Source of the DNA: an uncultured Dehalococcoidia bacterium | Lineage (GTDB): Bacteria > Chloroflexota > Dehalococcoidia > Lucifugimonadales > UBA1123 | Direction of reading: 5' to 3' | NCBI GenBank assembly: GCA_958296105.1 | Contig: OY282441.1 | Span: 2,984,773-3,048,772, forward strand | Length of the DNA: 64,000 bases | In this document: one piece after another, positions 34,249 to 54,413 of the stretch | Layout: every line of letters begins with the position of its first letter | Position numbering within the stretch: position 1 is the stretch's first letter | Position numbers and translations under genes: made by a program | Notes under the pieces: generated by a model | Seen by the model: only the letters and a program-made list of their open reading frames with translations | Told to the model about the DNA's origin: nothing | The model's database searches: none

Positions 34249-35115
34249 GTGGCAGTAGTAGGATCAGGCGATTTTCAGTACGAGCGAGTCCCGGAGTGGC
34301 CGAACATGCCCAAATACTGGGCGTTCGGAGCGGCATCTGACGGAGCGGTCAATTCGAGCGACGAGGTCTATATCTTCAGCAGAGGGCTTCATCCGGTGAC
34401 CATCTGGGACACCGACGGCAATTTCATAAGCTCGTGGGGCGAGGGGACTTTCTCCGCCAACCCGCACGGCATCTACATCGCGCCGAACGATAACGTGTGG
34501 CTCGTGGACCGCGACTTCCACATCGCCACCGAGTACACCCCCGGCGGCGAGGCGCTGCGAACGCTCGGCGAGAAGCTCGCGCCGTCCCCATCGTTCCAGG
34601 GTATGCCGTTCAACATGCCATCCGGCCTTGCCATCGCGCCGGACGGCCACATGTTCGTCTCGGACGGCTACGGCGGCCACCGCGTCCACAAGTTCACCGC
34701 CGAGGGCGAGCTGGTGAAGTCTTGGGGCAGTCAGGGGACAGGCCCAGGCGAGTTCGCGCTGCTTCACAACATCTGGGTCGACCGCAACAGCCGAGTCTAT
34801 ATCGCCGACCGCGAGAACGACCGTATGCAGCTGTTCACGGACGAGGGCGAGTTCATCGAAGAGTGGACCGACATGACCGCGCCCGGCGACCTCTGGATTC
34901 AGGACGACGTAATCTACGTCATCGAGCAGGGCGGGGGCAACGGCGTCAGCATCTGGACGATGGACGGCGAGCTGATCACGCGCTGGCGCGGCAATGAGGG
35001 CGCCGGATTGGGAACCCTCATCGGCGGACACGGCATCTGCGTCGACTCGCGCGGCAGCATATACGTTACCGAGATAGGGCAGGGGGAGCGGGTTTCCAAG
35101 TTCGTGAGAGTGTAA
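34249..35115 (+). CDS. NHL-repeat six-bladed beta-propeller protein (peptidyl-alpha-hydroxyglycine alpha-amidating lyase-like)
   Basis: 288 aa. Repeated blades (PHGIYIAPNDNVWLVDR, PSGLAIAPDGHMFVSDGYGGHRVHKF, VYIADRENDRMQLF, GHGICVDSRGSIYVTE). GTG start after a GGGAGG SD. Confidence 0.8.
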   Translation: MAVVGSGDFQYERVPEWPNMPKYWAFGAASDGAVNSSDEVYIFSRGLHPVTIWDTDGNFISSWGEGTFSANPHGIYIAPNDNVWLVDRDFHIATEYTPGGEALRTLGEKLAPSPSFQGMPFNMPSGLAIAPDGHMFVSDGYGGHRVHKFTAEGELVKSWGSQGTGPGEFALLHNIWVDRNSRVYIADRENDRMQLFTDEGEFIEEWTDMTAPGDLWIQDDVIYVIEQGGGNGVSIWTMDGELITRWRGNEGAGLGTLIGGHGICVDSRGSIYVTEIGQGERVSKFVRV

Positions 35116-35311
35116 GTCCTCTCTCCCCTCAGCGATGCGATCTTCAGGAAAGCGGCTGATTCCCCCGCTTGCGTCACTGGCTGACCGAGTTACCGAGATA
35201 GGACAGGGGGAGCGGGTCTCCAAGTTCGTGAGAGTGTAAGTCCTCCCTCCCCTCGGCGATGCGATCTTCAGGAAAGCGGCTGATTCCCCCGCTTGCGCCA
35301 CTGGTTGACCG
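35066..35311. repeat. 123-bp tandem duplication (2 units) spanning the convergent 3' ends of the NHL gene and aroE
   Basis: Unit 1 is 35066-35188 and unit 2 is 35189-35311, with only a few mismatches. Each gene keeps one intact 3' end, and the other unit holds a silent pseudo-end. Confidence 0.85.
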
Positions 35312-38155: not shown

Positions 38156-41100
38156 CTAACTGGGCGTGAGCGTGGCGGCAGGCGTAGGCGTGGCGGTAAT
38201 GGGTTCGGCGGCAGGCGTAGGCGTGGCGGCAGGTGTAGGCGTAGGCGTAGGCGTGGGTGTAGGCGTCGATGTGGGTTCGGCGGTAGGTGTAGGCGTAGGC
38301 GTGGCGGCAGGTGTAGGCGTAGGCGTGGGCGTGATGATAGGTGTAGGCGTAGGCGTGATTGTAGGCGTAGGTGTGGGCGTGGCGGTCTCGCCGCCGCAGA
38401 ACGGCAGGCCAAGCACCGAGAAATCGTTAGTTTGCACACGCCGCAAGCCTTCAGGCACACATCCGCTCGACTTATTGCCGCGGAGGTACAGCAGCTCTAG
38501 GTTGGCAAGATTGCCCAGCTCCTTCGGGATCGCGCCGCTCAGCTGATTGCTGGAGAGCCACAGCTCTTTCAGGCTGTCGAGTCTGCCCAGCTCTGGCGGA
38601 ATCTCGCCGCCCAGCTGATTGTCGTAGAGTACCAGATGTGTCAGATTGTCGAGTCCGCCCAGCTCCGTCGGAATCTCGCCGCTCAGCTGATTGAAGGAGA
38701 GGATCAGTGATGTCAGATTGTCGAGTCCGCCCAGTTCCGTCGGAATCTCGCCGCTCAACCGATTTCTGGCGAGCCACAGCTCTCTCAGGCTGTCGAGGTT
38801 GCTCAGCTCCGTCGGGATCTCGCCGCTCAGCTGATTGTTGTAGAGGACCAGATCTTTCAGGCTGTCGAGGTTGCCCAGCTCCGTCGGGATCTCGCCGCTC
38901 AGCTGATTGAAGGAGAGTACCAGATGTGTCAGATTGTCGAGGTTGCCCAGCTCCGTCGGAATTTCGCCGCTCAACCGATTGCTGTGGAGAAATAGCGTTG
39001 TCAGATTGTCGAGGTTGCCCAGCTCCGTCGGAATTTCGCCGCTCAACCGATTGTCGTGGAGGTCCAGTCCCGTGACGCGCCCGCTGTCGTTGGTGGAGAC
39101 TCCGTACCATTCACCGATTGGCATGTCGCTCAGCCAGTTTGTGTTGTTCGCCCAGCTGCGACCGTTGGCGGCTTTGTAGAACGCTGTCAAGGCGGCTCTG
39201 TCCGTCGAAGCTCCGCCCGATGTTGGCGTTGGCGTGGGGGTAGGCGTTGGCGTGACGGTAGGCGTGGGGATCTCGTCGCCGCAGAACGGCAGGCCAAGCA
39301 CCGAGAAATCGTTGTCCCGCACACGCCGCAAGACCGCAGGCACACATCCGCTCAGCTGATTGTCGCCGAGCCACAGTATCTCTAGGTTGGCGAGATTTCC
39401 CAGCTCCGGCGGAATCACGCCGCGCAGCTGATTGTCGTAGAGCCACAGCTCTCTCAGGCTGGCGAGGTTGCCCAGTTCCGGCGGAATCACGCCGCTCAGC
39501 TGATTGTCGCCGAGCCACAGCTCTTTCAGCTTGGCGAGATTGCCCAGTTCCGGCGGAATTTCGCCGCTCAGCTGATTGTCGCGGATATACAGCCGCTCTA
39601 GGTTGGCAAGATTGCCCATCTCCGGCGGAATCACGCCGCGCAGCTGATTATTGTCGAGCCACAGCTCTCTCAGGCTGGCGAGGTTGCCCAGTTCCGGCGG
39701 AATCACGCCGCTCAGCTGATTGTCGTGGAGGTTCAGTCTCGTGACGCGCCCTCTGCCGTCGGTGGCGACTCCGTGCCATTCACCGATTGGCATGTCGCTC
39801 AGCCAGTTTGTGCTGTTCGTCCAGTTGCGTCCGTTGGCGGCGTTGTAGAACGCTGTCAAGACGGCTCTGTCGACGGGCGTGGGTGTGGGAGTCTCGTCGC
39901 AGAACAGCAGGCCAAGCACCGAGAAATCGTTGTCCGGTACACGTCGCAAGCCCGCAGGCACACATCCGCCCAGCTGATTGCCGCGGCGGAGGTACAGCAG
40001 CTCTAGGTTGGCGAGATTTCCCAGTTCCGGCGGAATCACGCCGCGCAGCTGATTGTCGTAGAGCCACAGCTCTCTCAGGCTGGCGAGGTTGCCCAGCTCC
40101 TGCGGAATTTCGCCGCTCAGCTGATTGTCGTGGAGGTACAGCAGCTCTAGGTTGGCAAGACTTCCCAGCCCCTGCGGAATCACGCCGCTCAGCTGGTTGT
40201 CGAGGAGGTTCAGCTCCGTGACGCGCCCGCTGCCGTTGGTGGTGACTCCGTACCATTCACCGATTGGCATGTCGCTCAGCCAGTTTGTGTTGTCCGCCCA
40301 GCTGTTGCCGTTGGCGGCTTTGTAGAGCGCTGTCAAGGCGGCTCTGTCCGTCGAAGCTCCGACTGATGCTGTTGGCGTGGGCGTGGGCGTCTCGTCGCAG
40401 AACGGCAGGCCAAGCACCGAGAAATCGTTGTCCTGCACACGCCGCAAGCCCGCAGGCACACATCCGCTCAGCTGATTGTCGCCGAGCCACAGCAGCTCTA
40501 GGTTGGCAAGATTTCCCAGCTCCGTCGGAATCACGCCGCTCAGCCGATTATCGGGGAGGTACAGCACTCTCAGGCTGGCGAGGTTGCCCAGCTCCGTCGG
40601 AATCACGCCGCTCAGCTGATTGTCGCCGAGCCACAGCTCTTTCAGCTTGGAGAGGTTGCCCAGTTCCGTCGGAATCACGCCGCTCAGCTGATTGCCGAGG
40701 AGGACCAGATGTGTCAGTTCGGCGAGGTTGTCCAGCTCCGTCGGAATCACGCCGCTCAGCTGATTGTCTTGGAGGTGTACCCACTCCAGGTTGGTAAGAC
40801 TGCCCAGCTCCGTCGGAATTTCGCCACTCAGCCGATTGGCGTGGAGGCCCAGTCCCCTGACGCGCCCGCTGCCGTCGGTGGAGACTCCGTACCATTCACC
40901 GATTGGCATGTCGCTCAGCCAGTTTGTGCTGTTCGTCCAGCTGCGTCCGTTGGTGGCGTTGTAGAACGCTGTCAAGGCGGCTCTGTCGATGGGCGTGGGT
41001 GTGGGCGTGGCGGTCGCATCGCCGCAGAAGGGCAGCCCAAGCCCCGAGAAATCGTTTTCCGGCACACCCCGCAAGCTCGCAGGCACACATCCGCGCAGCT

Positions 41101-43537
41101 GATTCTCGCCGAGCCCCAGCAGCTCGAGGTTGGTAAGACTGCCCAGTTCCGGCGGAATCACGCCGCTAAGTTGATTGCCGAGGAGGACCAGATCTCTCAG
41201 GCTGGCGAGGTTGCCCAGTTCCGGCGGAATCACGCCGCCCAGCTGATTATGGTCGAGCCACAGCTCTCTCAGCTTGGCGAGTTTGCCCAGCTCCGGCGGA
41301 ATCACGCCGCTCAGCTGATTGTCGTAGAGTTGCAGTCCCGTGACGCGCCCACTGCCGTCGGTGGAGACTCCGTGCCATTCACCGATTGGCATGTCGCTCA
41401 GCCAGTTCGTGTTGTTCGCCCAGCCGTTGCCGTTGGCGGCATTGTAGAACGCTGTCAAGGCGGCTCTGTCCGTCGAAGCTCCGCCTGATGCTGTTGGCGT
41501 GGGCGTGGGCGTCTCGCCGCAGAACGGAAGGCCAAGCACCGAGAAATCGTTGTCCTGCACACGCCGCAAGCCCGCAGGCACACATCCGCTCAACCGATTG
41601 TCGCCGAGCCACAGCAGCTCCAGGTTGGTAAGACTGCCCAGCTCCGGCGGAATCTCGCCGCTCAGCTGATTGTCGTAGAGGACCAGCACTCTCAGCCGCC
41701 TGGCGAGTTTGCCCAGTTCTGGCGGAATCTCGCCGCTCAGCTGATTGTCGTGGAGGTACAGCTCTCTCAGCTTGGCGAGTTTGCCCATCTCCGGCGGAAT
41801 CACGCCGCTCAGCTGATTCTCGGGGATGTACAGCACTCTCAGGTTGGTAAGATTTCCCATCTCCGGCGGAATCACGCCGCTCAGCTGATTGTCGTGGAGG
41901 TCCAGCACTCTCAGGTTGGTAAGACCGCCCATCTCCGGCGGAATCACGCCGCTCAGCTGATTGTCGTAGAGTTCCAGCTCCGTGACGCGCCCGCTGTCGT
42001 CGGTGGAGACTCCGTACCATTCCCCGATTGGCATGTCGCTCAGCCAGTTTGTGCTGTTCGTCCAGCTGCTGCCGTTGGCGGCGTTGTAGAACGCTGTCAG
42101 GGCGGCTCTGTCGATGGGCGTGGGAGTGGGCGTGGCGGTCTCATCGCAGAACGGCAGGCCAAGCCACGAGAAATCGTTATCCGGCACACGCCGCAAGCCC
42201 GCAGGTACACATCCGCTCAGCTGATTGTCGCCGAGATGCAGCCACCGCAGGTTGGTAAGACCGACCAGTTCCGGCGGAATCACGCCGCTCAGCTGATTCT
42301 CGGGGAGGTACAACTCTCTCAGGCTGGCGAGATTGCCCAGTTCCGGCGGAATCACGCCGCTTAGATCATTATAGTCGAGCCACAGCATCTCTAGGTTGGC
42401 GAGGTTGCCCAGTTCCGGCGGAATCACGCCGCTCAGCTGGTTGTCGTAGAGGTCCAGTTCCGTGACGCGCCCGCTGCCGTCGGTGGTGACCCCGTACCAT
42501 TCACCGATTGGCATGTCGCTCAGCCAGTTTGTGTTGTCCGCCCAGCTGCGTCCGTTGGTGGCGTTGTAGAACGCTGTCAGGGCGGCTCTGTCGGTCGAAG
42601 CTCCGCCTGATGCTGGCGTGGGCGTGGCTGCGGTCGCATCGCCGCAGAACGGCGGGCCAAGCGCCGAGAAATTGTTGTCCGGCACACGCCGCAAGCCCGC
42701 AGGCACACATCCGCTCAGCTGATTCTCAGGGAGGTACAGCACCTTCAGGCTGGCGAGGTTGCCCAGCCCCGGCGGAATCTCTCCGCGCAGCCGATTGTGG
42801 ATGAGGTGCAGCACCTCTAGGCTGGCGAGATTTCCCATCTCCGGCGGAATCACGCCGCTCAGCTGATTGTCGCCGAGCCACAGCTCTCTCAGGTTGGCGA
42901 GATTTCCCATCTCCGGCGGAATCACGCCGCTCAGCTGATTGTCGTAGAGGAACAGATTTATCAGGCTGGCGAGATTTCCCATCTCCGGTGGAATCTCTCC
43001 GCTCAGCTGATTATCGTCGAGCGACAGCTCTGTCAGGCTGGCGAGATTGCCCAGTTCCGGTGGAATCTTGCCGCTCAGCTGATTGTCACCGAGCTGTAGC
43101 CACCCTAGGCTGGCGAGATTGCCCAGTTCCGGTGGAATCTTGCCGCTCAGCTGATTGTCACCGAGCTGTAGCCACCCTAGGCTGGCGAGATTGCCCAGTT
43201 CCGGCGGAATCTCGCCGCTCAGCTGGTTGTCGTAGAGGTTCAGTCCCGTGACGCGCCCGCTACCGTCGGTGGCGACTCCGTGCCATTCCCCGATTGGCAT
43301 GTCGCTCAGCCAGTTTGTGCTGTTCGTCCAGCTGCTGCCGTTGGCGGCGTTGTAGAGCGCTGTCAAGGCGGCTCTGTCGGTCGAAGCTCCGCCTGATGCT
43401 GCGGGCTTGGACGTCGTTGGCGGCGCGGGTGTATCGAGTGGGGACGGCTCAGGTGTCGGCTGCGCTCCATCGGCGCAGCCCGCGCCAAGTGCCAGCGCGA
43501 CTGCAACCGCTGCTGCCACGACTGCCATTAGCTTCAT
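38156..43537 (-). CDS. Giant secreted/lipoprotein with 8 super-modules of plant-type (24-aa) leucine-rich repeats and PT-rich linkers
   Basis: 1793 aa. Signal peptide ending ALGAGC. Eight modules each begin DRAALTA(F/L)[24 protein letters not shown](H/Y)GV..D..GRVT.L.L. Each module then has 4-8 LxxLxxLxLxxNQLSGxIPxELGN repeats and a [23 protein letters not shown] cap. TPTPTP tail. Confidence 0.85.
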
Positions 43538-43804
43538 GCGATACTCCCAAACTGCCAGATACGGCCAAAAGTCAGGACATTATACCCCAGCCGCTCCGCT
43601 AATCTACAGGGCAGCGCGCCGGTACTCCTCTCACGCGCTGACAACATTGGGAACGAGGGGCTGCGGCTGCGCTCGGTGTTGCGAGCGCAGCTGAACATGT
43701 TGGCGCGCCGGACGAAGCGGCACGGCAATAGCGTAGAGACGCTGGCGGGGCGTTGTCGATGGCGCGGCCCAATATAGTATCAGCGCGTGAAGAGAATACC
43801 CCGA

Positions 43805-43833
43805 TTGACAGCCATTTATACCTCTGTTAGCAT
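43805..43833 (+). promoter_or_regulatory. Candidate sigma70-type promoter upstream of glmU
   Basis: TTGACA (43805-43810), 17-nt spacer, TAGCAT (43828-43833). About 100 nt upstream of the glmU ATG. Confidence 0.3.
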
Positions 43834-43933
43834 GAAGCGAATTGGAAGACCTACCTCATAGACTCATCGGCAGTTTTGCGCTTGGCTTGGGAAGTTGCGA
43901 CTTCATGGCTGGGCGCGTTTTTGTTTCATTCCT

Positions 43934-45292
43934 ATGACGAACTTCGCAGCCGTAGTTCTTGCCGCAGGCAGGGGCGCACGCATGAGGTCACGCATTCCAA
44001 AGGTGTTGCATCGCGTCTGCGGCAAGCCGATGGCATCCATCGCAGCGTCCGTTGCGAGCGACGCCGGGCTGGAGCCGATTGTATTCGTGACGCCGCCAGA
44101 CTCCGCCCCCGTGCGATCCGCCATTGGTGACGGCTGCGCTTACGTCGTCCAAGAACAGCCCATGGGAACGGGCCACGCCCTGCTCCAAGCCCAAGAGGTC
44201 TCCCGCGAGTACGAAGACCTGCTGGTGATGAACGGCGACATACCCCTGATTACGTCATCGACCCTCGAATCGCTGGCAGAGGCTCATATCAGGTCCGGCG
44301 CTCCCGTCACGATTCTGGTGTCCACCGACATCGACCCCAATGGACTCGGCAGAGTCGTTCGAGACGCCAGCGGCGGAGCTGCCGCGATCGTCGAACAGAA
44401 CGATGCAGACGAACAGACACTCGCAATCGGCGAGGTCAACGTTGGCGTGTACTGCTTTCGGACGCGCTGGCTTTGGCGAAATCTGCCTCGTCTGACGCCG
44501 TCGGAAAGCGGCGAGACGTACCTCACCGACCTGATCGCGCGCGCCGCGCGGCAGGGCCATCGCGTGGAGACGATCCGCGCGCACGACGGGAATGAAGCGT
44601 GGGGTGTGAACACGCGCGAGGAGCTGGCGAGGGCCGAAGCGATCATGCGCGACAGGATTCGCCGCCAATGGATGGCGGAAGGAGTCTCCATCCCCGATCC
44701 CCCGTCCGTCTACATCGACTGCGACGCTCGGATCGGAATGGATACCGTCCTGCTGCCCAACACCCACGTCAGGGGTGCGACGAGCATCGGCGAGGCGTGC
44801 GAGATAGGCCCGAACTCGATAATCTCGGACTCCGAGATAGGAGACCGCAGCCTCGTAGTGGCATCGGTCGTCGAGGATGCGACCCTAGAGACCGATGTCA
44901 GCGTCGGACCATTCAGCCACATACGGCCACGTGCCCACTTGGAATCGGGCGTCCACATCGGCAACTTCGGCGAGATCAAGAACAGCCGCATAGGGAAGGG
45001 CGCCAAGTCCGGACACTTCAGCTATATAGGAGACGCCGAGGTGGGTTCCAACGTCAACATCGGCGCGGGGTCCGTCACCTGCAACTTCGACGGGCAGGAC
45101 AAGCACGCGACCGTGATAGGCGACGACGCCTTCATCGGCTCATCCACCATGATGGTAGCGCCGCTGAGAATCGGCGCGCGCGCCTACACGGGAACCGGAT
45201 CGGTGGTCACCAAGGATGTGCCGGATGACTCAGGGGCTGTCGGCGCGCCCGCCAGAATCAGATCGAAAAGACCCAGTCAAGGCGGATCCTAG
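43934..45292 (+). CDS. glmU: Bifunctional UDP-N-acetylglucosamine diphosphorylase/glucosamine-1-phosphate N-acetyltransferase
   Basis: AVVLAAGRGARMRSRIPKVLH N-terminus and a C-terminal left-handed beta-helix of hexapeptide repeats. Start ATG 43934. Confidence 0.9.
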   Translation: MTNFAAVVLAAGRGARMRSRIPKVLHRVCGKPMASIAASVASDAGLEPIVFVTPPDSAPVRSAIGDGCAYVVQEQPMGTGHALLQAQEVSREYEDLLVMNGDIPLITSSTLESLAEAHIRSGAPVTILVSTDIDPNGLGRVVRDASGGAAAIVEQNDADEQTLAIGEVNVGVYCFRTRWLWRNLPRLTPSESGETYLTDLIARAARQGHRVETIRAHDGNEAWGVNTREELARAEAIMRDRIRRQWMAEGVSIPDPPSVYIDCDARIGMDTVLLPNTHVRGATSIGEACEIGPNSIISDSEIGDRSLVVASVVEDATLETDVSVGPFSHIRPRAHLESGVHIGNFGEIKNSRIGKGAKSGHFSYIGDAEVGSNVNIGAGSVTCNFDGQDKHATVIGDDAFIGSSTMMVAPLRIGARAYTGTGSVVTKDVPDDSGAVGAPARIRSKRPSQGGS

Positions 45293-45405
45293 CGTCGTGT
45301 CCAGATGGCATTGCCAGTATGATCGTGTCACACTTTCCCACATTCGTATGGACCCGCGCCAGTTCCACAGATTGGTGAACCGCCGCCCCGCAGTGGAGCG
45401 CTAAA

Positions 45406-46644
45406 TTGGAGAGCGACAGTACGTTATCGGCGCTGGCCCTAGCTGTATCGGCCCTGCTCCTGGCGATTTCGGAGGCGGGCGCTGCCGCAATAGCCGCGGC
45501 GCTTCGCGCTCCGATCCAACAGGCCTCGAACGGCTCTCCGTCTCGCGCCAGATCGCTGGGCTTGCTAACGAATCTGCCCGGCGGTCCGACGGCTTCACTG
45601 AGACTCGTCAGCCTCGCCGCGCTTGCCGCGTCGATGCTCTCCGCAGCCGTCACGGTCGCCTCCATCTGGGGCGCGCGCTGGGATCTGGTCGCCGTATATG
45701 GGGTCGCGGCTCTGGCGGCTCTGATGGTCGTCACCTTCTTGGCGCGCGGAGTCGGGATTCGGAACTCGGATGCGATGCTCGGCGTCAGCTCCAGAGCGGC
45801 TTGGCTGCTCTCTTTTCCCTTCAGACCCGTACTCCTGCTCCACTCGTACATACTCCACAGCCTCGCCTCCGACCAGACCGCCCCCGACATGGACTTCGAG
45901 ATCTCCGTCGATACACACGACGAGCCGCTGGACGAGTACGAGATGAGGATGATCAGGGGAGTGGTGCGGCTGGACAAGACGGTGGCGCGCGAGATAATGG
46001 TGCCGAGAGTCGATATTGTGGCGGTCGAGTCCAGCGAGTCGCTCGATGCGCTGGCGGAAGAGATGAACTCCGCAGGTCACAGCCGAGTGCCAGTGTTCGA
46101 GCGGGACTTGGATAGAGTATCGGGCATTGCGCACGCCAGAGACGTCCTTCAGAAGCTCGTGAGCGGATGCGACCCTTCCAAGATTACAGCCCGAGACGTG
46201 TGCCGAGATCCGCTGTTCATACCCGAGTCCAAGACGCTCGAAGAGCTTCTCGAAGAGTTTCAGCAGAAGCGAACTCATCTGGCAGTGGTGGTGGACGAGT
46301 ACGGAGGCGTTTCGGGAATCGTCACCATCGAGGATCTGCTCGAAGAGATAGTGGGCGAGATTCGAGACGAGTTCGACACGGAGGAGTCGGAGATTCAGAG
46401 CTTGAGTCCATCGAGGTTCTTGGTGGACGCCCGAGTTCCGATCGACGACCTCAACGAAACGCTCGGCGTGCAGATCGTTGGCGACGGGTTCGATACCATC
46501 GGCGGCTTGGTGTTCGATCAGCTGGGAAAGATACCAGTAGCCGGCGATACCGTCGAGTACGGCAGACTCAGCATCGAAGTCATAAGCACCATCGGGCGAA
46601 GGCCCACGTCTCTCATCGTGCGCGTTGCAAGCGCGGAGCGATAG
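45406..46644 (+). CDS. HlyC/CorC family transporter (CNNM/DUF21 TM domain + 2 CBS + CorC_HlyC)
   Basis: 412 aa. ...VREIMVPRVDIVAV..., HSRVPV, AVVVDEYGGVSGIVTIEDLLEEIVGEI, with a C-terminal CorC domain. TTG start. Confidence 0.85.
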   Translation: MESDSTLSALALAVSALLLAISEAGAAAIAAALRAPIQQASNGSPSRARSLGLLTNLPGGPTASLRLVSLAALAASMLSAAVTVASIWGARWDLVAVYGVAALAALMVVTFLARGVGIRNSDAMLGVSSRAAWLLSFPFRPVLLLHSYILHSLASDQTAPDMDFEISVDTHDEPLDEYEMRMIRGVVRLDKTVAREIMVPRVDIVAVESSESLDALAEEMNSAGHSRVPVFERDLDRVSGIAHARDVLQKLVSGCDPSKITARDVCRDPLFIPESKTLEELLEEFQQKRTHLAVVVDEYGGVSGIVTIEDLLEEIVGEIRDEFDTEESEIQSLSPSRFLVDARVPIDDLNETLGVQIVGDGFDTIGGLVFDQLGKIPVAGDTVEYGRLSIEVISTIGRRPTSLIVRVASAER

Positions 46645-46845
46645 CGAGTAGCGCGAGTACAGCAGACTCGGCATAGAGGTAGTGAGCGCCGCCCGCTGCT
46701 CGGACGAGAAGGCCCCACGTCTCTCATCGCGCGCGTTGCAAGCGAGTAGCGCGAGTACAGCAGACTCGGCACAGAGGTAGTGAGCGCCGCCCGCTGCTCG
46801 GACGAGAAGGCCCCACGTCTCTCATCGCGCGCGTTGCCGCTGCGG
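46555..46845. repeat. ~97-100-bp tandem repeat: one diverged copy forms the 3' coding end of the CorC-like gene, and two near-identical copies follow downstream
   Basis: GAGTAC(G/A)GCAGACTC...GGCCCACGTCTCTCATCG(T/C)GCGCGTTGCAAGC recurs with GAGTAC at 46555, 46655 and 46752. Downstream copies carry a 17-nt insert relative to the coding copy. Confidence 0.8.
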
Positions 46846-47079
46846 AGATTCAGGCTAACCTCGAACCGCCCCCGTACTTGGGCTGAGTTTTCATCCCGTA
46901 CTGACAACACCCAGCCGCGGCCTGTCACCAAGCGTGGGTCGGACAGCCGCAGCCAGCCTATTCCCGCCCCTCGGCCCCGCATATGTGCGCTCAGTATCTC
47001 AGGATTGCGGATAGACAGGCAGAGACGGTTCGAGAGCCGTTCCTATTTGGACTCCCTTCCCATGTGTGTCCTCCCTCCT

Positions 47080-47262
47080 CCGCGCTTCATCGGAACGACG
47101 GGCAGGGTAGGGCAGCTGCCGCTCGTGGGCGCGATTACAGTATGCCGCGCTTCACCGGAACGGAGCAGGGGTAGGCAGGGTAGGGCAGCTGCCGCTCGTG
47201 GGCGCGACTACAGTATGCCGCGCTTCACCGGAACGGCGGGCAGGGTAGGGGTAGGTATTTCG
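47080..47262. repeat. 65-73-bp intergenic tandem repeat (about 2.6 copies)
   Basis: CCGCGCTTCA(T/C)CGGAACG...CAGGGTAGGGCAGCTGCCGCTCGTGGGCGCGA(T/C)TACAGTATG starts at 47080, 47145 and 47218. Confidence 0.8.
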
Positions 47263-47294
47263 CCAGATGTCGGAGTTTGTGAGTGACACACAAC

Positions 47295-47318
47295 GACGCC
47301 TCCGAGATCGGAGGCGTC
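47295..47318 (-). terminator. Hairpin downstream of the collagen-like gene (possible terminator)
   Basis: GACGCCTCC-N6-GGAGGCGTC is a perfect 9-bp stem. On the minus strand it is followed by GUUGUGUGU, a weak U-tract. Confidence 0.3.
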
Positions 47319-47352
47319 GCGCGTACTATCTAGGCTGTGTGTTGGGTGGCGG

Positions 47353-48228
47353 CTACTTTTCCTCTGCGACCACGAGAGGCGCGGTTGCCGAGGAACCCTT
47401 GTTGCCGACCGCTTGCAGGGTGTAGATGCCTGCGCTCAGCGGGTTCGGAGATTCCACCATGAACGCGCCCGATCCGTTGGCTGTCGCCCCAACTAGGATG
47501 CGGTTGTTCCCACCGTCTGCGGCGGCGACTGCGATCATGGTCACGGCTTCGCCTGCATCGAATCCCGCGCCCCAGACGCTGATGTCTTCGCCAACGGCTG
47601 CTGCTGCCGCGAGCAAGCTGGTGTCCACAGATGTTTCGGACGCAGGCGCGGCGATGACCCTAACAGGAACGCTTGCCCTGCTTCCATCAGCCCCGTGCGC
47701 CAAGAACGATCTCTGGCCCCTTGCCCTGTCTTGGCTGGCTGCCGCGCCGCCGATCTCGTCGAACGAGACCATGAACGCGCCGGCTTCGTTGGCCTGAACC
47801 TGTGAGCCTCTGGCTCCGCCTGCGATGATCGTAAGATCCGGACCTACTCCGAGCATCAGAGTTACAGGCTCGCCGGGCAGGAATCCAGAACCCCACACCG
47901 TGATCGGGTCGCCGGAAGTGGCAAGCTCTGTCTTGTTAATCGAGATCGCCGCCTCGGGGGAAACCCCCGGAGGCCCCTGAAGGCCCGGAGCGCCTGGAGG
48001 CCCTGGAGGGCCGGCGCTACCGGGGTTGCCGGGGTTGCCGGGCAGTCCGGGCAGTCCCGGCTCGCCCGGAGGACCTGCAGGACCCGGCTGTCCAGAGTTG
48101 CCGGGGTTGCCGGGCAGACCCGGAAGTCCGGGTTCGCCTGGTGGTCCCTGGCAAGCAATCAGCGCGAATACTAGAACGGAAGAAAGCAGGGCTAATACCA
48201 TACCCTTCATGGGGAAACGCCTTCTCAT
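47353..48228 (-). CDS. Collagen-like triple-helix-repeat lipoprotein with two C-terminal Ig-like/beta-sandwich repeats
   Basis: Signal peptide + lipobox (LIAC), then ~31 uninterrupted G-X-Y triplets ([17 protein letters not shown]...). Two similar ~90-aa segments follow ([17 protein letters not shown] / [17 protein letters not shown]). GAGGGGG SD lies before ATG 48228. Confidence 0.7.
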
Positions 48229-48460
48229 CTGACCCCCTCTCGAGATGATTCCTATGGGTCGAAGTCCAATCTGTCGAGTCCGTTCCCGGACTAACGACGC
48301 TCGGACATAAATGGTTTCGCCGGACATTCCGGCACTGCACAAACGCGGCATAATCATATGCACCTCTCAGTTGTATGTCAAGTGTTTCCGAACCTATTGG
48401 GGCAGCAACCACGCGCCTTGTCACCCCTGCCTGAGCTTGCTATATTCTGTTGGCTGAAGT

Positions 48461-48535
48461 GCCCCCGTAGCTCAGTGGATAGAGCGCTGGCCTCCGGAGC
48501 CAGGCGCGTGGGTTCGAGTCCCGCCGGGGGTACCA
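48461..48535 (+). tRNA. tRNA-Arg (anticodon CCG), CCA encoded
   Basis: Cloverleaf by hand: acceptor GCCCCCG/CGGGGGT, D-arm GCTC-AGTGGATA-GAGC, anticodon arm CTGGC-CTCCGGA-GCCAG, T-arm GTGGG-TTCGAGT-CCCGC, then ACCA. Confidence 0.9.
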
Positions 48536-48537
48536 TA

Positions 48538-49410
48538 TCACTTCCACTGCTCTGGCGCATCGCGCAGACGCCCCAGCCCCAGACTCTCGCAGAGCTCGAT
48601 GTAACCCGCCCTCGGAACGCCCGTCCAGCGCAGATCCCCCAGCCCCTCGTCCAGCCGAACGTCCGTCCTCAGCGTCGCCAGCGTCTTGTAGAGCGCGGCT
48701 TCGCGCCTGTTGGCGGCAAGCGTCCGAGCGAGCGACGCCGCGCCTCGAACCTTGACCGTCCAATCCTCATGCGAGTCGGGTATCGCTTCGAGGCGGCGGT
48801 ACTCGGACAGCGCGGCGGCAGTCCCCTTCGCTCCCCACCCGCGCAGCCCCGGGATCCCGTCCGCAGAGTCTCCCACCAGCGCGAGGTAGTCGGGAATGGA
48901 CTCCGGCGGCACGCCGAACCGCTCCCGCGCCTCGCTCTCCCCGTAGGTGATGTCGCGCCGCCTGTCCCACACCACCACGCGCGAGCCTTCCACCAGATTC
49001 ATCAGATCCTTGTCCACCGAGCATACGATCACCCGCTCGATTGCCGGGTCGTCCTTCCACCTGTGTACTGCGGTGGCGATGGCGTCGTCCGCCTCGAACT
49101 CGACCATCGGCCAGACGACTATGCCCAGCGCCCTCACAGCCTCTTCCGCCAGCGTGAACTGCGCGTACAGCTCTTCCGCAACCCCCTCGCCCGTCTTGTA
49201 GCCCTCGAAGAGGTCGTTCCTGAACGACTCGACCACGTGGTCGAACGCGCAGGCGATGAAGTCCGGCCTCCGCTCCCTCAGCAGCCTAAGCAGCGACTGG
49301 AGCAGGCCCGCGACTGCGCCAACGGGCGCGCCGTCCGGAGCGGAGCGGCTGGGCGCACCGAAATGCGCGCGGAACAGCTCGTATGTGCCGTCTACGAGAT
49401 ACAGATTCAT
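48538..49410 (-). CDS. 5'-3' exonuclease (FEN/PolI N-terminal domain family)
   Basis: 290 aa. MNLYLVDGTYELFRAHF, VCSVDKDL, H3TH LVGDSADGIPG. The longer 595-aa ORF in the track reads through the next gene in a wrong frame. Confidence 0.85.
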   Translation of the reverse strand: MNLYLVDGTYELFRAHFGAPSRSAPDGAPVGAVAGLLQSLLRLLRERRPDFIACAFDHVVESFRNDLFEGYKTGEGVAEELYAQFTLAEEAVRALGIVVWPMVEFEADDAIATAVHRWKDDPAIERVIVCSVDKDLMNLVEGSRVVVWDRRRDITYGESEARERFGVPPESIPDYLALVGDSADGIPGLRGWGAKGTAAALSEYRRLEAIPDSHEDWTVKVRGAASLARTLAANRREAALYKTLATLRTDVRLDEGLGDLRWTGVPRAGYIELCESLGLGRLRDAPEQWK

Positions 49411-49415
49411 GGCGA

Positions 49416-50387
49416 TCAGAACCAGTTCGCCTTGTCGACCACATTCCGCAGATCCCTGCCCTCGCTGAAGCGAACGCAGTTGTCGATGAACAGCTCGGCG
49501 CGTCGGTCGTCCAGATACGGCCCCGCGCCCGCGCAGTGCGGCGTTATGATCACGTTGGGCATTCGCCACAGCGGATGATCGGACGGCAGAGGCTCCGTCT
49601 CGAACACGTCCAGCGCCGCGCCCCTCAGCGCCCCCTCTTCCAGCGCCCGCGCCAGATCGTCCAAGACGACCGTCGCGCCCCGACCGATGTTGATGAAGTG
49701 CGCGCTCGGCTTCATCAGACGGAACTTCTCGATGGTGAACAGCCGCTGCGTCTGCGGAGTCTCCGGGACGGTGACGATCACGAAATCGGCGCGCCCAAGC
49801 GCATCGTCCATGTCTTCGGGGCGCGCAAGCTCGGCAACGCCTTTGGGCGCAGATTCCACCCTCGGATCGACTCCGATGACAGTCATGCCGAACTCCGAGC
49901 ATAGCCGCGCCGTCTCCCCGCCGATGCCCCCGATCCCGACCACCGCCGCCGTGGAGTCCGGCAGATTCACTATCTCGTACCCCGGCCTCCACTCCGCCCT
50001 CGTCTGGCTGCGAACATAGGCGTGAATCCCTCTGGCGAAGGCTAGGACGTATGCCATGATGTGGTTGGAGATGTGATCGTTGTAGATGTCCCGCGTGTTG
50101 GTCACCACAACGTCGCTGCCGATCAGGTCCGGGTGGTAGTAGCCCGCCGCTGGCCCTGCCTGCGGACAGGCGATCCAGCGAAGATTGCCCCTGCGCTCGA
50201 ACACTTCCGGAACGATGTCGCCAAAGGCGGCGTCCGCCTCGCCGATCATCTCCATCGCCTCGCCCGCCGAGCGCGCCACGTTGACCCGTATGCCGGGAAC
50301 GGCATCCTCGAGACGGCGCGGCCACTCGTCCAAGTGGCTGCCCTCGGACTGTCTGCCCGTTCCCATGATCAGCAGGTTGAAGGTCAT
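49416..50387 (-). CDS. D-isomer-specific 2-hydroxyacid dehydrogenase family protein
   Basis: 323 aa. NAD-binding VGIGGIGGETARL, INIGRG, D..E...TPHCAG catalytic context. Confidence 0.85.
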   Translation of the reverse strand: MTFNLLIMGTGRQSEGSHLDEWPRRLEDAVPGIRVNVARSAGEAMEMIGEADAAFGDIVPEVFERRGNLRWIACPQAGPAAGYYHPDLIGSDVVVTNTRDIYNDHISNHIMAYVLAFARGIHAYVRSQTRAEWRPGYEIVNLPDSTAAVVGIGGIGGETARLCSEFGMTVIGVDPRVESAPKGVAELARPEDMDDALGRADFVIVTVPETPQTQRLFTIEKFRLMKPSAHFINIGRGATVVLDDLARALEEGALRGAALDVFETEPLPSDHPLWRMPNVIITPHCAGAGPYLDDRRAELFIDNCVRFSEGRDLRNVVDKANWF

Positions 50388-50452
50388 TCGCGTCTCCGTT
50401 CTGAGCGGTCGATGGTCGAGTGGTCGATGGTCTTATGGTTGGCGTCTGACGG

Positions 50453-51436
50453 TCAGCGCGTTCTCGGGTTGAGAACGTCGTTGAGCGCGTCCCCGAACAG
50501 ATTCCAGCACAGTACGAGCGTCCAGGATACGATGCCCGGGGTGAGCAGCATCCAGGGCACCTCGCGCAGCGCGCTCAGGCTTCCGGCTTCCAGCAGCATG
50601 GTTCCTAGGCTCGGCCTCGGCGGCTGTATGCCCAGCCCCAGCCAGCTGAGGATTATCTCCGCGCCCACCATCGAACCCATGCCCATGGATACGGCTACCA
50701 CAATGGGGCTTATGGCGTTGGGCAGCAGGTGGTTGAACAGGATGCGCGGCGCGCTCGCGCCTATGGCTTGCGCCGCGTCCACGTACTGAGTTCGCTTCAG
50801 GTACAGAACCTGCCCGCGCACCAGCCTGGCTATGCCGAACCAGCTGAACGCCAGCAGCGCGAACGATATGACCACGTAATCCGCCAGCCCCGATCCAATG
50901 ATTCCGTCGAGGAACGTTTGATCCTCCAGCGAGCGGATGAAGCTCTTGATGCGAGGGCCGAGCGTGGCAGCCAGTATGATGATTAGCAGGATGTCCGGAA
51001 AGGCGGCGAACACCTCCCCAACGCGCATGATCAGCGCGTCTATCCACCTGCCGAAGTACCCAGACACCAGCCCCATAGTCACGCCGATCAGCAGCCCGCC
51101 CGTGGCCATGGCGACCACCGTTATTATGACCGTGTTCTGTATCCCCCACATGACGCGGGTGAGCAGGTCGCGCCCCTTGAGATCGGTTCCCGCCCAGTGA
51201 TCGACGCTCGGCGGCTTGCGGATGGCGGTGTAGTCCTGCGCGGTGTACTCGTATGGCGCGATGAACGGCGCAAGTATGCCCGCGCCGTACAGCCCGATCA
51301 GCAGGACCACGCTGAGCATGGCGAGCTTCTTGCGCACCAGACGCGACATAGCGCGCGCCAGATGCCCGCGCCCCCCTTGGTCGCTCCCCGCGTCCTCCAG
51401 CGCCGCGATTGCGGGTCTCGACCGCTCCATACTCAC
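50453..51436 (-). CDS. ABC transporter permease (peptide/nickel type, DppC/OppC-like)
   Basis: 327 aa, 6 TM. Binding-protein-dependent transport motif region (YVDAAQAIGASAPRILFNHLLPN). Confidence 0.85.
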   Translation of the reverse strand: MSMERSRPAIAALEDAGSDQGGRGHLARAMSRLVRKKLAMLSVVLLIGLYGAGILAPFIAPYEYTAQDYTAIRKPPSVDHWAGTDLKGRDLLTRVMWGIQNTVIITVVAMATGGLLIGVTMGLVSGYFGRWIDALIMRVGEVFAAFPDILLIIILAATLGPRIKSFIRSLEDQTFLDGIIGSGLADYVVISFALLAFSWFGIARLVRGQVLYLKRTQYVDAAQAIGASAPRILFNHLLPNAISPIVVAVSMGMGSMVGAEIILSWLGLGIQPPRPSLGTMLLEAGSLSALREVPWMLLTPGIVSWTLVLCWNLFGDALNDVLNPRTR

Positions 51437-52368
51437 TGGTACCTGATCCTAGGGTCCACCATCGAGTACGCTATGTCCGCCAGCAGGTTCGCCAAGACGA
51501 ACGCCGTAGCGCCTATCAGCGTTATCGCCATGATGATCGGATAATCTCGGTTGAAGATCGAGTCTATCGCCAGGCTGCCCATTCCGGGGATGCCTAGTAT
51601 CCGCTCCGCTATGAATCCCGTGCTGAGCATACCCGCCAGCGTGAATGAGAGAACCGTGATGATGGGTATGACGGCGTTCTTGAAGATGTGTCGATAGTCG
51701 ATCGCAAGAGCGGACAGCCCCTTCGCTTGAGCGGTGCGAATGAAGTCCTGCCCCATCACGTCCAGAGTGCTGGCGCGCATCAGCCTGACCAGCCCGGCAA
51801 CGCCCGGAATGCCCATGGTGACTGCCGGAGTGATGATCCGCACGTCCCAGAAGCCGCCCCAGCCCGAGCATGGCAGAAGGTCCGTCTTCAGACAGGTCAC
51901 CCACAGGAAGGCGGGGATGCTGACCATGATCGGGATGGACATGAGGATGAGCGCCGTCGCCACGACGCTGGGGTCTATCCAGCTGCCCTGCTTGTGGGCG
52001 ATGAAGAAGCCGAGCGGAAGCCCGATGACGAGGCTGACGACCAGCGCAGCCACGTTGACTTGGAACGACACCCATATCTTGGCAGTCAGGAGATCGGACA
52101 CCGGACGCCCCCGAAATCGGTAGCTCTCTCCGAAATCCCCTTTCAGCGCCCCCCACACGTAGCCCGCGTACTGGATTGCGAACGGCCTGTCCAGCCCGAG
52201 CTGCGAGCGAAGGTTCTTCGTCACCTCCGAGCTGGGATCGTAGCGATTGCCGAGCATCACCTGAACCGGGTCGCCCGGCCCGAAGCGCCCCAGCGTGAAG
52301 GTGACGAAAGACACCGCCAGCAGCAGCACCGGCAGCCAGAGCAGCCTGCGGGTTATGTACAGCCACAT
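51433..52368 (-). CDS. ABC transporter permease (DppB/OppB-like)
   Basis: 311 aa. MWLYITRRLLWLPVLLLAVSFVTF N-terminus, FIRTAQAKGLS EAA-type loop. 4-nt overlap with the downstream permease. Confidence 0.85.
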   Translation of the reverse strand: MWLYITRRLLWLPVLLLAVSFVTFTLGRFGPGDPVQVMLGNRYDPSSEVTKNLRSQLGLDRPFAIQYAGYVWGALKGDFGESYRFRGRPVSDLLTAKIWVSFQVNVAALVVSLVIGLPLGFFIAHKQGSWIDPSVVATALILMSIPIMVSIPAFLWVTCLKTDLLPCSGWGGFWDVRIITPAVTMGIPGVAGLVRLMRASTLDVMGQDFIRTAQAKGLSALAIDYRHIFKNAVIPIITVLSFTLAGMLSTGFIAERILGIPGMGSLAIDSIFNRDYPIIMAITLIGATAFVLANLLADIAYSMVDPRIRYQ

Positions 52369-52573
52369 GCCGAGAAGTCCCTTCTTCCCTCACGTCCTCT
52401 TACACCTTGCGCGCACATGATACACCCTTTCACCACTCGGCGGGGAGAGTATGAGAGAAGAAATCCCTTCTCCTTGGCGTGAGAAGTCCAGTCTATATAA
52501 ATCCCTTCCCCCTTGGCGTGAGAAGGCTAGGATGAGTGGGATTCCTTCGCATCCTAGCCCCACTTGGCGGGTA

Positions 52574-52606
52574 GAAAAAATCCCCTCTCCCGCAATGGGA
52601 GAGGGG
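52574..52606 (-). terminator. Intrinsic terminator/attenuator between the substrate-binding gene and the permease genes
   Basis: Minus strand reads CCCCUCUCCC-AUUGC-GGGAGAGGGG followed by AUUUUUUC, 20 nt after the binding-protein stop. Confidence 0.6.
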
Positions 52607-52626
52607 ATCGGGGATCGTCTTCTCGA

Positions 52627-54388: not shown

Positions 54389-54413
54389 TTTTCACTCTCA
54401 CTGCCCTCACTTG

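Follow-up and report, generated by a model that had tools for sequence, protein, structure and literature searches.

A predicted lipoprotein with eight plant-like leucine-rich repeat modules in a SAR202-like Chloroflexota bacterium

The gene and its N-terminus

The window (the whole stretch of 64,000 nucleotides analysed here) comes from an uncultured Dehalococcoidia/SAR202-like member of the Chloroflexota, and the named relatives of the IleRS that it encodes belong to Chloroflexota/SAR202. As originally predicted, positions 38156..43537 of the minus strand hold one ATG-initiated open reading frame, a complete coding sequence of 1793 codons plus the stop codon (38156-38158). A Shine-Dalgarno-like GGGAG (43544..43548, minus strand) lies 6 nt before the ATG and a perfect TATAAT hexamer (43579..43584, minus strand), found by reading the sequence ~40 nt ahead of the start codon, is a possible -10 box; a consensus scan found no full sigma-70 site on this strand. 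A domain search of the protein detected no transmembrane helix, kinase or other non-LRR domain.

The first 21 residues (43475..43537, minus strand) are predicted to form a signal peptide with a lipobox: they match the PROSITE PS51257-type pattern, their h-region has a mean Kyte-Doolittle value of 2.64, and Cys21 is probably the lipidation site. The lipobox, L-G-A-G-C, has Gly at position -3 and not the canonical Leu. The same type of N-terminus, with Cys right behind the hydrophobic region (LAAC, LLAC, VMAC, IVGC etc.), recurs in 47 homologs, which supports the proposed classification as a lipoprotein. A Pro/Thr/Ser-rich spacer (aa 22-53; 43379..43474, minus strand) would connect the lipid anchor to the first module.

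Module anatomy

The protein contains eight modules, each composed of an N-cap, a run of leucine-rich repeats (LRRs) and a C-cap, and its matches to Pfam LRR_1 (2.9e-146) and LRR_4 (4.3e-120) are far beyond chance. All on the minus strand, module 1 (aa 54-298; 42644..43378) has 8 LRRs, module 2 (aa 316-464; 42146..42592) 4, module 3 (aa 476-673; 41519..42112), the one that was modelled, 6, module 4 (aa 690-838; 41024..41470) 4, module 5 (aa 851-1047; 40397..40987) 6, module 6 (aa 1064-1213; 39899..40348) 4, module 7 (aa 1223-1419; 39281..39871) 6, and module 8 (aa 1446-1714; 38396..39202) 9, for a total of 47. The modules are joined by TP-rich linkers and followed by a Thr/Pro-rich C-terminal tail of 79 aa (38159..38395, minus strand), which is length-polymorphic and comprises only 46 aa in the sister strain L079. 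The N-caps start at the first residue of each module, and the C-caps, GCVP...FC, lie at aa 276, 442, 651, 816, 1025, 1191, 1397 and 1692. The original prediction of eight modules, each ending in a two-Cys cap and a TP linker, thus holds, but the range of 4-8 repeats per module has to be extended to 4-9.

The N-cap motif begins with DRA[AV]LTA[LF]Y[NK]A and ends with [YH]GV...GRV. It lacks any Cys typical of the plant cap and gave no match to Pfam LRRNT_2 even at E <= 10; an LRRNT_2 match was found in only 1 of 24 caps (E = 0.075). The label "LRRNT_2-like" is justified by structural likeness but not by the family HMM or by the Cys pair, which is absent. The C-cap has the fuller motif GCVP..L..V..NDF..LGLPFC, and its two Cys residues, invariant across 22 homologous modules, probably form a disulfide.

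The LRRs have a period of 24 residues (25 in two units) and the consensus L-A-x-L-x-x-L-x-L-x-D-N-Q-L-S-G-x-I-P-P-E-L-G-N. This agrees with the published plant-specific (PS) LRR consensus (PMC2946307) at L1, L4, L7, L9, N12, L14, S15, G16, I18, P19, L22 and G23, in support of the assignment to the plant-specific class.

Comparison with plant and bacterial LRR proteins

The structural model of module 3 alone (pLDDT 97.7, pTM 0.92) matched plant LRR ectodomains in all 50 of its top 50 Foldseek hits against the PDB. The ectodomains of SERK1/2, BAK1 and BIR3 (PDB 4lsc, 4m7e_C, 6fg8, 4q3i) superimpose on this single module end to end, with TM scores of 0.72-0.86 in both directions (TMq 0.72-0.79, TMt 0.72-0.86), an RMSD of 2.1-2.7 A and 30-39 % sequence identity. 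Likewise, the 39 best matches of a PDB sequence search were plant LRR receptor ectodomains, led by GSO1 (6.6e-112) and FLS2 (3e-108). Because the best matches by sequence and by Foldseek all come from plant LRR ectodomains, "plant ectodomain-like module" is an apt term. Common to the module and the SERK/BAK1/BIR3 ectodomains are an N-terminal helix/strand cap, about five PS-type 24-residue LRRs and a C-cap. Unlike these receptors, the bacterial module comes without a transmembrane helix or kinase, its N-cap lacks the Cys pair and fails LRRNT_2, its C-cap motif is different, and eight such domains stand in tandem in a single bacterial protein with a lipobox. The large plant LRR receptor kinases that gave the best PDB sequence matches (GSO1 6s6q, FLS2 4mn8, PEPR1 5gr8, MIK2 8wei; E 1e-112 to 1e-86) share the repeat consensus, and the alignments reach the W.GV..D..G.V part of the cap; however, these proteins form one unbroken solenoid of 20-30 LRRs, as opposed to short capped solenoids of 4-9 LRRs with TP linkers between them. 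In a two-module model (pTM 0.67) the cores scored above pLDDT 90 and the linkers and caps 49-78, so that the modules are modelled as independently folded beads on a string of flexible linkers.

The closest bacterial proteins of solved structure, LIC11098 (4u08, E 6e-45) and LIC10831 (4u06, E 2.5e-41) of Leptospira, are LRR proteins of a host-associated bacterium but come far down the list after the plant proteins and are not built as a series of capped modules. The top NCBIfam match was the Leptospira fibronectin-binding family LIC_11051, with a score of 308 against a cut-off of 1000, and all matches to NCBIfam families of characterised bacterial LRR adhesins and effectors fell far below their cut-offs. 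Listeria internalins and the Xanthomonas type III effectors XopAC, XopAE and XopL are also bacterial LRR proteins, which bind host proteins via the concave face, but they differ in LRR class, caps and export (LPXTG/GW anchoring or type III secretion versus a lipobox).

Family size and distribution

A profile built from the cap alone matched 20,304 protein clusters, mostly from Dehalococcoidia-type genomes, and the genome matches were mostly to Dehalococcoidia/Chloroflexota, with some to Latescibacterota, Binatia, Tectimicrobiota, Caldilineaceae and Gemmatimonadota. The 1793-aa protein is an unusually large member of this huge and already recognised bacterial family and not a new type of system. 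Species-representative genomes usually showed 1-3 modules. The eight-fold concatenation, described as unusual in the original prediction, is indeed statistically rare but has precedent, because about 20 of the best 150 cap-bearing proteins, out of the 20,304 matching clusters, have at least 8 caps; the maximum among those listed is 20, and two proteins (P0121 and P0122) have ~15-20 caps each.

Internal duplication, gene conversion and selection

A new observation is that the six central modules represent a triplicated two-module unit of 1.12 kb with ~86 % DNA identity. Super-unit 1 (41519..42643, minus strand; 1125 nt) comprises modules 2 and 3, each with its preceding linker, and is 85.5-86.8 % identical in DNA comparison to super-units 2 (modules 4 and 5; 40397..41518, minus strand; 1122 nt) and 3 (modules 6 and 7; 39281..40396, minus strand; 1116 nt). 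The longest exact repeat in the gene, 98 nt, lies within module 1 at an offset of 72 nt (43035..43204, minus strand); this tandem duplication, which confirms the exact 72-bp repeats noted near 43040-43190, makes LRR2 and LRR3 of that module identical. Very high DNA identity between units applies to the N-caps (89-95 % identical) but is not general, since the 72-bp units have a mean identity of 70.5 % and the TRF arrays 78-84 % matches. The dS is 0.11-0.14 in the caps, compared to 0.42-0.89 for the units generally.

The genome of strain L080, an independent assembly, is 98.3 % identical over the first 4695 nt of the gene; its copy extends from module 1 into the beginning of module 8, with no cap shifted by even one residue over 1565 aa. 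Strain L079 reproduces the last ~640 nt (the final part of module 8 plus the tail), so the two together tile the whole gene with a 57-nt overlap. Comparison of the strains shows differences at 1.68 % of the positions in the gene, about 12 times the 0.14 % of its flanks, although such clustered differences in a repetitive gene could in part be consensus or polishing errors. Some tracts are closer to paralogs than to the ortholog, for example a candidate gene-conversion tract of 71 nt (39405..39475, minus strand) that is identical to 40026-40096 in module 6 and differs from the L080 ortholog. Both the elevated divergence and the conversion-like tracts are new observations. Taken with the triplicated unit and the low dS of the caps, the conversion-like tracts support recent expansion and potential for recombination; the gene grew by triplication of the two-module unit and probably still changes through gene conversion between its repeats.

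Another new observation is that substitutions concentrate on the concave face of the modules. Amino-acid entropy across the LRR units is highest at positions 5, 6, 8 and 10, and 29 of 36 concave positions vary between in-register super-units, as against 85 of 334 other positions (Fisher p = 1e-10). The dN/dS values were 1.28 at concave codons versus 0.47 elsewhere over 46 units and 1.97 versus 0.55 for the in-register super-units, values that, among intragenic repeats subject to gene conversion, do not amount to a rigorous test of positive selection.

Proposed function and alternatives

We favour, with a probability of roughly 0.6, the reading that this is a multivalent binding protein anchored through its lipobox and belonging to the "eukaryotic-like LRR" class known from sponge-associated Chloroflexota. 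The protein would be exported by the Sec route and probably lipidated at Cys21, which would display eight capped LRR solenoids outside the cell, strung on flexible Thr/Pro linkers. Each module would correspond, in a bacterium, to the small ectodomain of a plant co-receptor, with a helix-plus-strand cap, 4-9 PS-type repeats and a two-Cys C-cap. Its concave beta-sheet face is a putative ligand-binding surface, whose divergence from module to module would reflect relaxed or positive selection. This divergence makes a multivalent, multi-specific binding or adhesion role the most likely one. Proteins of the eukaryotic-like LRR class are thought to mediate the contact of sponge-associated bacteria with the host or matrix. 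They have been reported in SAR202 and Caldilineae of sponges (PMC6306507), and an enrichment of LRR proteins in MAGs from sponges over those from seawater has been reported as well (PMC8163846); these proteins, like the present one, are bacterial LRR proteins found in Chloroflexota, but the literature defines the class by Pfam LRR matches alone, without module anatomy.

The same architecture could instead have no host role and belong to an all-purpose extracellular binder. In a marine bacterium that is free-living or attached to particles, such a protein might mediate adhesion between cells or to particles, capture substrate, contribute to a scaffold associated with the envelope or S-layer, or act as a phage-receptor decoy. 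Given its enormous size and its spread over several phyla, the cap family need not be tied to one habitat; the neighbouring genes have housekeeping functions (amidase, GlmU, shikimate dehydrogenase, IleRS) and form no symbiosis island, and the locus shows no synteny to other LRR loci. We nevertheless consider this reading less likely. The MAGs that contain the closest relatives belong to Dehalococcoidia, Caldilineaceae, Latescibacterota, Binatia and Tectimicrobiota, taxa that have been described as characteristic of high-microbial-abundance sponges (PMC12586988, PMC6306507, PMC8163846), and the enrichment in sponge MAGs points the same way. Furthermore, the NHL propeller and collagen-like proteins noted nearby were both confirmed by Pfam (34249-35115 and 47353-48363), and there was no PADLOC match. 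Less likely still is a soluble LRR factor released after cleavage by signal peptidase I: Gly at -3 and the Ala/Gly-rich sequence around residues 17-24, which could be read as an AXA-type cleavage site, would fit it, but the Cys conserved behind the hydrophobic region in 47 homologs, the agreement with the PROSITE-type rule and the Pro/Thr spacer after the Cys, as typical of tethered lipoproteins, argue for the lipid anchor.

Recent acquisition of the gene or a module from a plant or alga is very improbable, even though every one of the best matches among solved structures is a plant protein and PS-LRR transfer between plants and bacteria has been discussed (Miyashita et al. 2013, as relayed in PMC4232680). 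GC and GC3 (0.76, versus 0.75-0.87 in the neighbours) fit the host genome; homologs with 45-64 % identity to the protein number in the thousands among bacteria, compared to 24-41 % identity for plant ectodomain structures; and the caps and lipobox are bacterial-specific, the N-cap without the plant Cys pair or an LRRNT_2 match and the GCVP...FC motif and lipobox common to bacterial proteins. The suggestion of horizontal transfer thus finds no sign of a recent event, and an ancient transfer, from plant to bacterium or the reverse, may have occurred. Even more improbable is a module count inflated or collapsed by assembly. Contigs of two near-identical strains do end inside module 8 (window 38898 and 38842), so this region is hard to assemble. 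However, L080, whose record name follows the hifiasm-style "ptg...l" pattern, keeps every cap position and L079 supplies the end and tail; exact repeats are no longer than 98 nt and the super-units differ at ~14 % of positions; and an identical IleRS lies on a 3.18-Mb contig, which indicates a long-read assembly.

Domain organization and assembly of the LRR gene

The LRR gene is a single ATG-start ORF in the window (38156..43537, minus strand) that encodes a protein of 1793 aa; its repeats and high G+C content account for the many other ORFs that overlap it on either strand. In line with the eight-module protein of the original prediction, pattern searches recovered eight N-caps (DRA[AV]LTA[LF]Y[NK]A..G..W... 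at the start and [YH]GV.T...GRV at the end, with 12 positions between them) and eight C-caps (GCVP..LR.V...[ND]FS.LG..FC). From module 1 to module 8, the number of LRRs is 8, 4, 6, 4, 6, 4, 6 and 9, for a total of 47; the predicted range of four to eight repeats per module holds at its low end but is exceeded by module 8. The LRR period is 24 residues (two of the 47 units have 25), as is the unit spacing, which reaches 25 only once among 39 anchors. Thr/Pro-rich linkers connect the modules, and the C-terminus consists of a 79-residue TP-rich tail only, with no hydrophobic segment. A Pfam search with the whole protein identified LRR_1 (2.9e-146), LRR_4 (4.3e-120, in 23 stretches), LRR_8 and LRR_14, and no non-LRR families. 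A GGGAG motif is located 6 nt 5' of the ATG and a perfect TATAAT about 40 nt upstream on the same strand; the promoter/terminator consensus scan returned nothing on the strand of the gene, and no terminator.

The possibility that the count of eight modules is an artefact of assembly was addressed with two contigs of near-identical strains from other assemblies. An exact look-up of the neighboring CorC-like protein led to the 27-kb contig L080 (ENA ERZ19489113, record s12270.ptg013072l, a hifiasm-style name), which is collinear with the window from 38842 to 56643 at 99.4 % identity and covers the LRR protein from its start to residue 1565, with all eight N-caps and seven C-caps at unchanged residue numbers. 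The other contig, L079 (ERZ19489085), shares 97-98 % identity with the window and covers the amidase side together with the last 213 aa of the LRR gene, so that the two jointly tile the whole gene. Their ends lie at most 57 nt apart (window 38842-38898) inside module 8, which contains an array with a 216-bp period (38513-39067). Because both contigs end inside this module, the region does break assemblies; the spot at 38842-38898 is a break-point of assembly or else a place where strains are heterogeneous. An IleRS identical to that of the window (database protein P0249) is encoded on a 3.18-Mb contig that presumably represents the source genome. On the evidence of L080 and L079 we reject an assembly artefact, which is most improbable, and the eight-module structure is regarded as verified, short of raw reads.

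Repeat class and module structure

The repeat unit has the consensus L-A-x-L-x-x-L-x-L-x-D-N-Q-L-S-G-x-I-P-P-E-L-G-N, which agrees at every signature position with the published consensus of plant-specific (PS) LRRs, LxxLxLxxNxL(t/s)GxIPxxLGxLxx, and the repeat length is within the 23-25 residues of that class (PMC2946307). N12, G16 and P19 are present in all 46 units compared, L7 and L14 in 45, L9 in 44, S15, I18 and L22 in 39, and G23 in 36. When a single module was searched against all PDB sequences, the 39 best matches were plant LRR receptor ectodomains, with GSO1 (6.6e-112) and FLS2 (3e-108) followed by PEPR1, MIK2, ERL1, HSL1 and BRI1, and the first bacterial structure, Leptospira LIC11098, appeared only at 6e-45.

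An AlphaFold2 model of module 3 (aa 476-673), built with 22 homologous modules, has a pLDDT of 97.7 and a pTM of 0.92; in it, a helix at the N-terminus and a capping strand precede a regular solenoid with an E-E-H pattern per repeat. All of the 50 top Foldseek matches in the PDB were plant PS-LRR ectodomains, including PGIP. The ectodomains of SERK1/2, BAK1 and BIR3 superimpose over their full length (TM 0.72-0.86 in both directions, RMSD 2.1-2.7 A), so one module corresponds roughly to one SERK-sized capped ectodomain. The assignment to the PS class made in the original prediction is therefore borne out by the consensus, the PDB sequence search and Foldseek. In a two-module model, both solenoid cores have pLDDT values above 90, the linkers are weaker and the pTM is 0.67, a prediction that fits independently folded beads on flexible linkers. 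The Cys pair of the C-cap is invariant in the 22 homologous modules and probably forms a disulfide. The compact capped module defined in this way comprises about 150-270 residues and could be expressed alone for ligand fishing.

The N-cap had been described as similar to the plant LRRNT_2 cap. This similarity extends to structure, as the model contains the LRRNT_2 trait of an alpha-helix and, after it, a beta-strand capping the first LRR (helix 2-11, strands 35-37 and 43-47), but not to family membership, which is rejected by the HMM searches: LRRNT_2 (PF08263) did not match a single N-cap at E <= 10 and, in a set of 24 caps, matched one, at E = 0.075, without reaching the gathering threshold. 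LRR_10 (PF18805) matched 19 of the 24 caps, all of them under threshold. In ectodomain structures, the plant LRRNT_2 cap has a conserved cysteine pair, but Cys is absent from all eight 41-residue N-caps, as exemplified by DRAAL.A.Y.A.NG..W...NWLSD.P.GEW.GV..D..GRV at aa 476-523 (41969-42112). The PDB alignments with GSO1, FLS2, PEPR1 and MIK2 start inside the N-cap and reach its W.GV..D..G.V half. Since no Pfam cap model matches above threshold, the bacterial N-cap may merit a family of its own.

The module family

A module query retrieved 3102 proteins, of which the best have both caps and several are multi-module, and a query with the whole protein gave 7927 matches, many of them 1400-3100 aa long. 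By pattern count, at least eight N-caps are present in 21 of the top 120 whole-protein matches, and two database proteins, P0121 and P0122, have about 15 N-caps each, with matching C-caps and no other domains; many relatives join the modules to other extracellular domains. A profile of the N-cap only, run exhaustively against 1.84 billion cluster representatives, identified 20,304 proteins at E <= 0.001, of which 1453 remained at E <= 1e-30, and about 20 of the best 150 have at least eight caps, with a maximum of 20. Among species-representative genomes, 68 of 75 loci contain one to three modules and only three contain at least six. These surveys place eight modules in the extreme upper tail, yet with clear precedent: the suggestion that an eight-fold concatenation is unusual stands for species representatives but has to be tempered by proteins with up to 20 caps.

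Within this bacterial family of capped PS-LRR modules, itself very large, the LRR protein is a large member. It also belongs to a recognized category, the LRR eukaryotic-like proteins of Chloroflexota, and has the Pfam LRR matches by which such proteins of sponge symbionts are defined. Scores under the curated NCBIfam cut-offs place it outside the Leptospira LIC family (LIC_11051, 308 against a cut-off of 1000), the Xop effectors (XopAC 293/450, XopAE 276/600, XopL 135/500) and the internalins (internalin A 251/1600, internalin H 182/1050). PADLOC found no families in the LRR protein at E <= 0.001, and a role in a defence system is rejected as far as PADLOC tells. The protein would cause a specialist no great surprise and its classification is unchanged; what changes is that a vague category becomes a testable molecule.

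Evolution of the LRR gene

The LRR counts and linker types alternate along the protein, and the six central modules form three tandem two-module super-units (modules 2+3, 4+5 and 6+7, each with its linkers) of 1125, 1122 and 1116 nt that are 85.5-86.8 % identical. Modules 2, 4 and 6 are mutually 84-88 % identical and modules 3, 5 and 7 are 87 % identical, whereas modules 1 and 8 are distinct. The predicted exact 72-bp repeat was confirmed, as 98 nt match exactly when the sequence is offset by 72 nt (43035-43204); this tandem duplicate makes LRR2 and LRR3 of module 1 the same. Very high DNA identity had been claimed for the units in general, but outside this duplicate it is moderate, with a mean of 70.5 % over all pairs of 72-bp units. 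TRF arrays have 78-84 % matches, and the N-caps are 89-95 % and the C-caps 74-96 % identical. The dS values are 0.11-0.14 for caps versus 0.42-0.89 for LRR units in general, and the low cap dS indicates that module-level duplication or homogenization was comparatively recent.

Amino-acid entropy is maximal at repeat positions 5, 6, 8 and 10, the exposed residues of the concave beta-strand, and positions 7, 9, 12, 14, 16 and 19 are nearly invariant. Across the 46 units, dN/dS (Nei-Gojobori) is 1.28 for concave codons versus 0.47 elsewhere; between in-register super-units the corresponding values are 1.97 and 0.55, with 29 of 36 concave positions variable versus 85 of 334 others (Fisher p = 1e-10).

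The LRR gene also differs between strains. Compared with L080, it differs at 1.68 % of positions (79/4695; 31 synonymous and 38 non-synonymous codons) versus about 0.14 % for 13 kb of flank. These differences are clustered, and several tracts are nearer to a paralogous repeat than to the ortholog: around gene nt 4062-4140, 95 of 99 positions of the window variant agree with a paralog but only 85 of 99 with the ortholog, and tracts 679-705 and 4503-4512 are identical to paralogs. Such conversion-like tracts are the signature of gene conversion between repeats, although consensus errors in the repeats may also be a source of clustered strain differences. The TP tail (38159-38395, minus strand, versus L079:3-644) has 79 residues in the window and 46 in L079, with the adjacent module 8 identical in amino acid sequence.

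Probable export and function

The 21-residue N-terminal sequence satisfies the PROSITE PS51257-type lipobox rule, which combines a positively charged n-region and a hydrophobic h-region with a lipobox whose final Cys falls within about 35 residues; position -3 is Gly, where Leu is canonical. Judged from this signal, the protein would be exported via Sec with lipoprotein processing, and the tether would consist of the predicted lipidated Cys21 and a Pro/Thr spacer. The same rule is matched by 47 of 238 Met-starting homologs, at least one of them falsely (P0002, where the match is inside an LRR). Lipidation is probable in the LRR protein, and its release in soluble form after cleavage by SPase I appears unlikely. 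With its Sec/lipobox signal, the LRR protein would be surface-tethered, possibly presenting eight binding domains similar to plant ectodomains. Most sponge MAGs with such repeat proteins are reported to be without injection-type secretion systems (PMC8163846); the predicted surface display offers a concrete alternative to injection for eukaryotic-like LRR proteins.

On the best-supported reading, the LRR protein would serve as an adhesin or a recognition protein, multivalent and multi-specific, within the eukaryotic-like LRR class. Its eight LRR solenoids, each folded separately, would be displayed on flexible TP linkers, and ligands would bind to the concave faces, which diverged between modules. 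The protein may work like a string of plant SERK-type ectodomains. Membership in the plant RLKs or RLPs is rejected, as the protein has no TM helix and no kinase, fails LRRNT_2 and has a different C-cap; those receptors have a single ectodomain and a TM helix (plus a kinase in RLKs), in contrast to eight tandem ectodomain-like units here. Eukaryotic-like LRR proteins have been repeatedly counted in the genomes of sponge symbionts, and their anatomy, export route and evolution have rarely been described. The analysis adds the triplicated super-unit, the diversification of the concave face, the conversion-like exchange seen between strains, the anatomy of the module and the lipobox route. The locus offers a well-defined, expressible reagent for the question of what these proteins bind.

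A bolder interpretation, which we consider speculative and rather doubtful, combines two proposals. One is a self-diversifying bacterial receptor array, in which duplication of two-module units, gene conversion between repeats and positive selection acting on concave faces would generate strain-specific binding repertoires at the surface, by which the cell would be recognized by an animal host or evade it, an analogue of the diversification of plant R genes and RLPs or lamprey VLRs. The other is that homology to a SERK-sized plant ectodomain would extend over the whole of the Cys-free capped module, which more than 20,000 bacterial protein clusters contain. In that case, the bacterial family would be a candidate source, not a recipient, of the plant LRR ectodomain.

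Genomic context and origin

A genome scan identified 276 relatives, and the best 78 loci are almost all from MAGs of Dehalococcoidia or other Chloroflexota, with a few from Tectimicrobiota, Latescibacterota, Binatia, Caldilineaceae and Gemmatimonadota; none of these 78 has a cap identity above 70 %. A synteny search of the window neighbors against the 78 LRR loci detected no shared context, so the position of the LRR gene is not conserved between species. Its GC (0.62) and GC3 (0.76) are inside the range of its neighbors, and this comparison of per-gene GC and GC3 values gave no compositional sign of recent acquisition. The plant-like matches of the module might suggest a recent horizontal transfer from plants, but this explanation is rejected on composition and on the hierarchy of identities, and we regard it as highly unlikely.

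The named relatives of the window IleRS are Chloroflexi/Chloroflexota/SAR202 MAGs at 63-65 % identity, which places the window in Chloroflexota, near SAR202-type MAGs. The taxa represented among the LRR relatives are, in combination, described as typical of high-microbial-abundance sponges in a note on a HiFi sponge metagenome (PMC12586988). Sponge SAR202 and Caldilineae have been reported to encode LRR eukaryotic-like proteins (PMC6306507), and sponge MAGs are enriched in them (PMC8163846). A sponge link of the window organism is plausible. Alternatively, the cell could be free-living and the protein bind targets other than a host; this is less probable than the reading above but retains an appreciable chance.

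The neighbors of the LRR gene are housekeeping genes for a methyltransferase, shikimate dehydrogenase, an amidase, GlmU, the CorC-like protein and IleRS. The NHL-repeat and collagen-repeat proteins predicted nearby were both recognized by Pfam. The former (34249-35115, plus strand; NHL 2.3e-16, DUF5128 3e-09) is a six-bladed beta-propeller protein, and NHL repeats are a class often counted among eukaryotic-like proteins. The latter (47353-48363, minus strand; Pfam Collagen 1.2e-9) is a collagen triple-helix repeat protein that has, from an internal start, a signal peptide ending in a lipobox (...VLVFALIAC), so it is possibly another surface lipoprotein built on a eukaryote-like repeat. In L080, the collagen-repeat region is called as two genes.

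A 124-bp tandem duplication (35065-35311; 2.0 copies, 95 % matches) begins within the NHL ORF, about 50 nt before its 3' end, crosses the gap and runs into the 3' end of the shikimate dehydrogenase gene. The window also encodes a family-5 solute-binding protein (SBP_bac_5, 52627-54345, minus strand, 6.9e-86). In L080 (11611-15209), its gene is followed by two OppB/C-type permease genes, which indicates that an ABC transporter cluster for peptides or oligosaccharides lies downstream of the LRR locus. Finally, a two-gene pair (19963-21779, minus strand) encodes an AAA_21/AbiEii-like ATPase (20556-21779) and a DUF4276-type protein (19963-20622) and matches a candidate defence system of PADLOC (HEC-01A 1.6e-132, HEC-01B 8.8e-43); the HEC-01-like pair is present in L079 as well.
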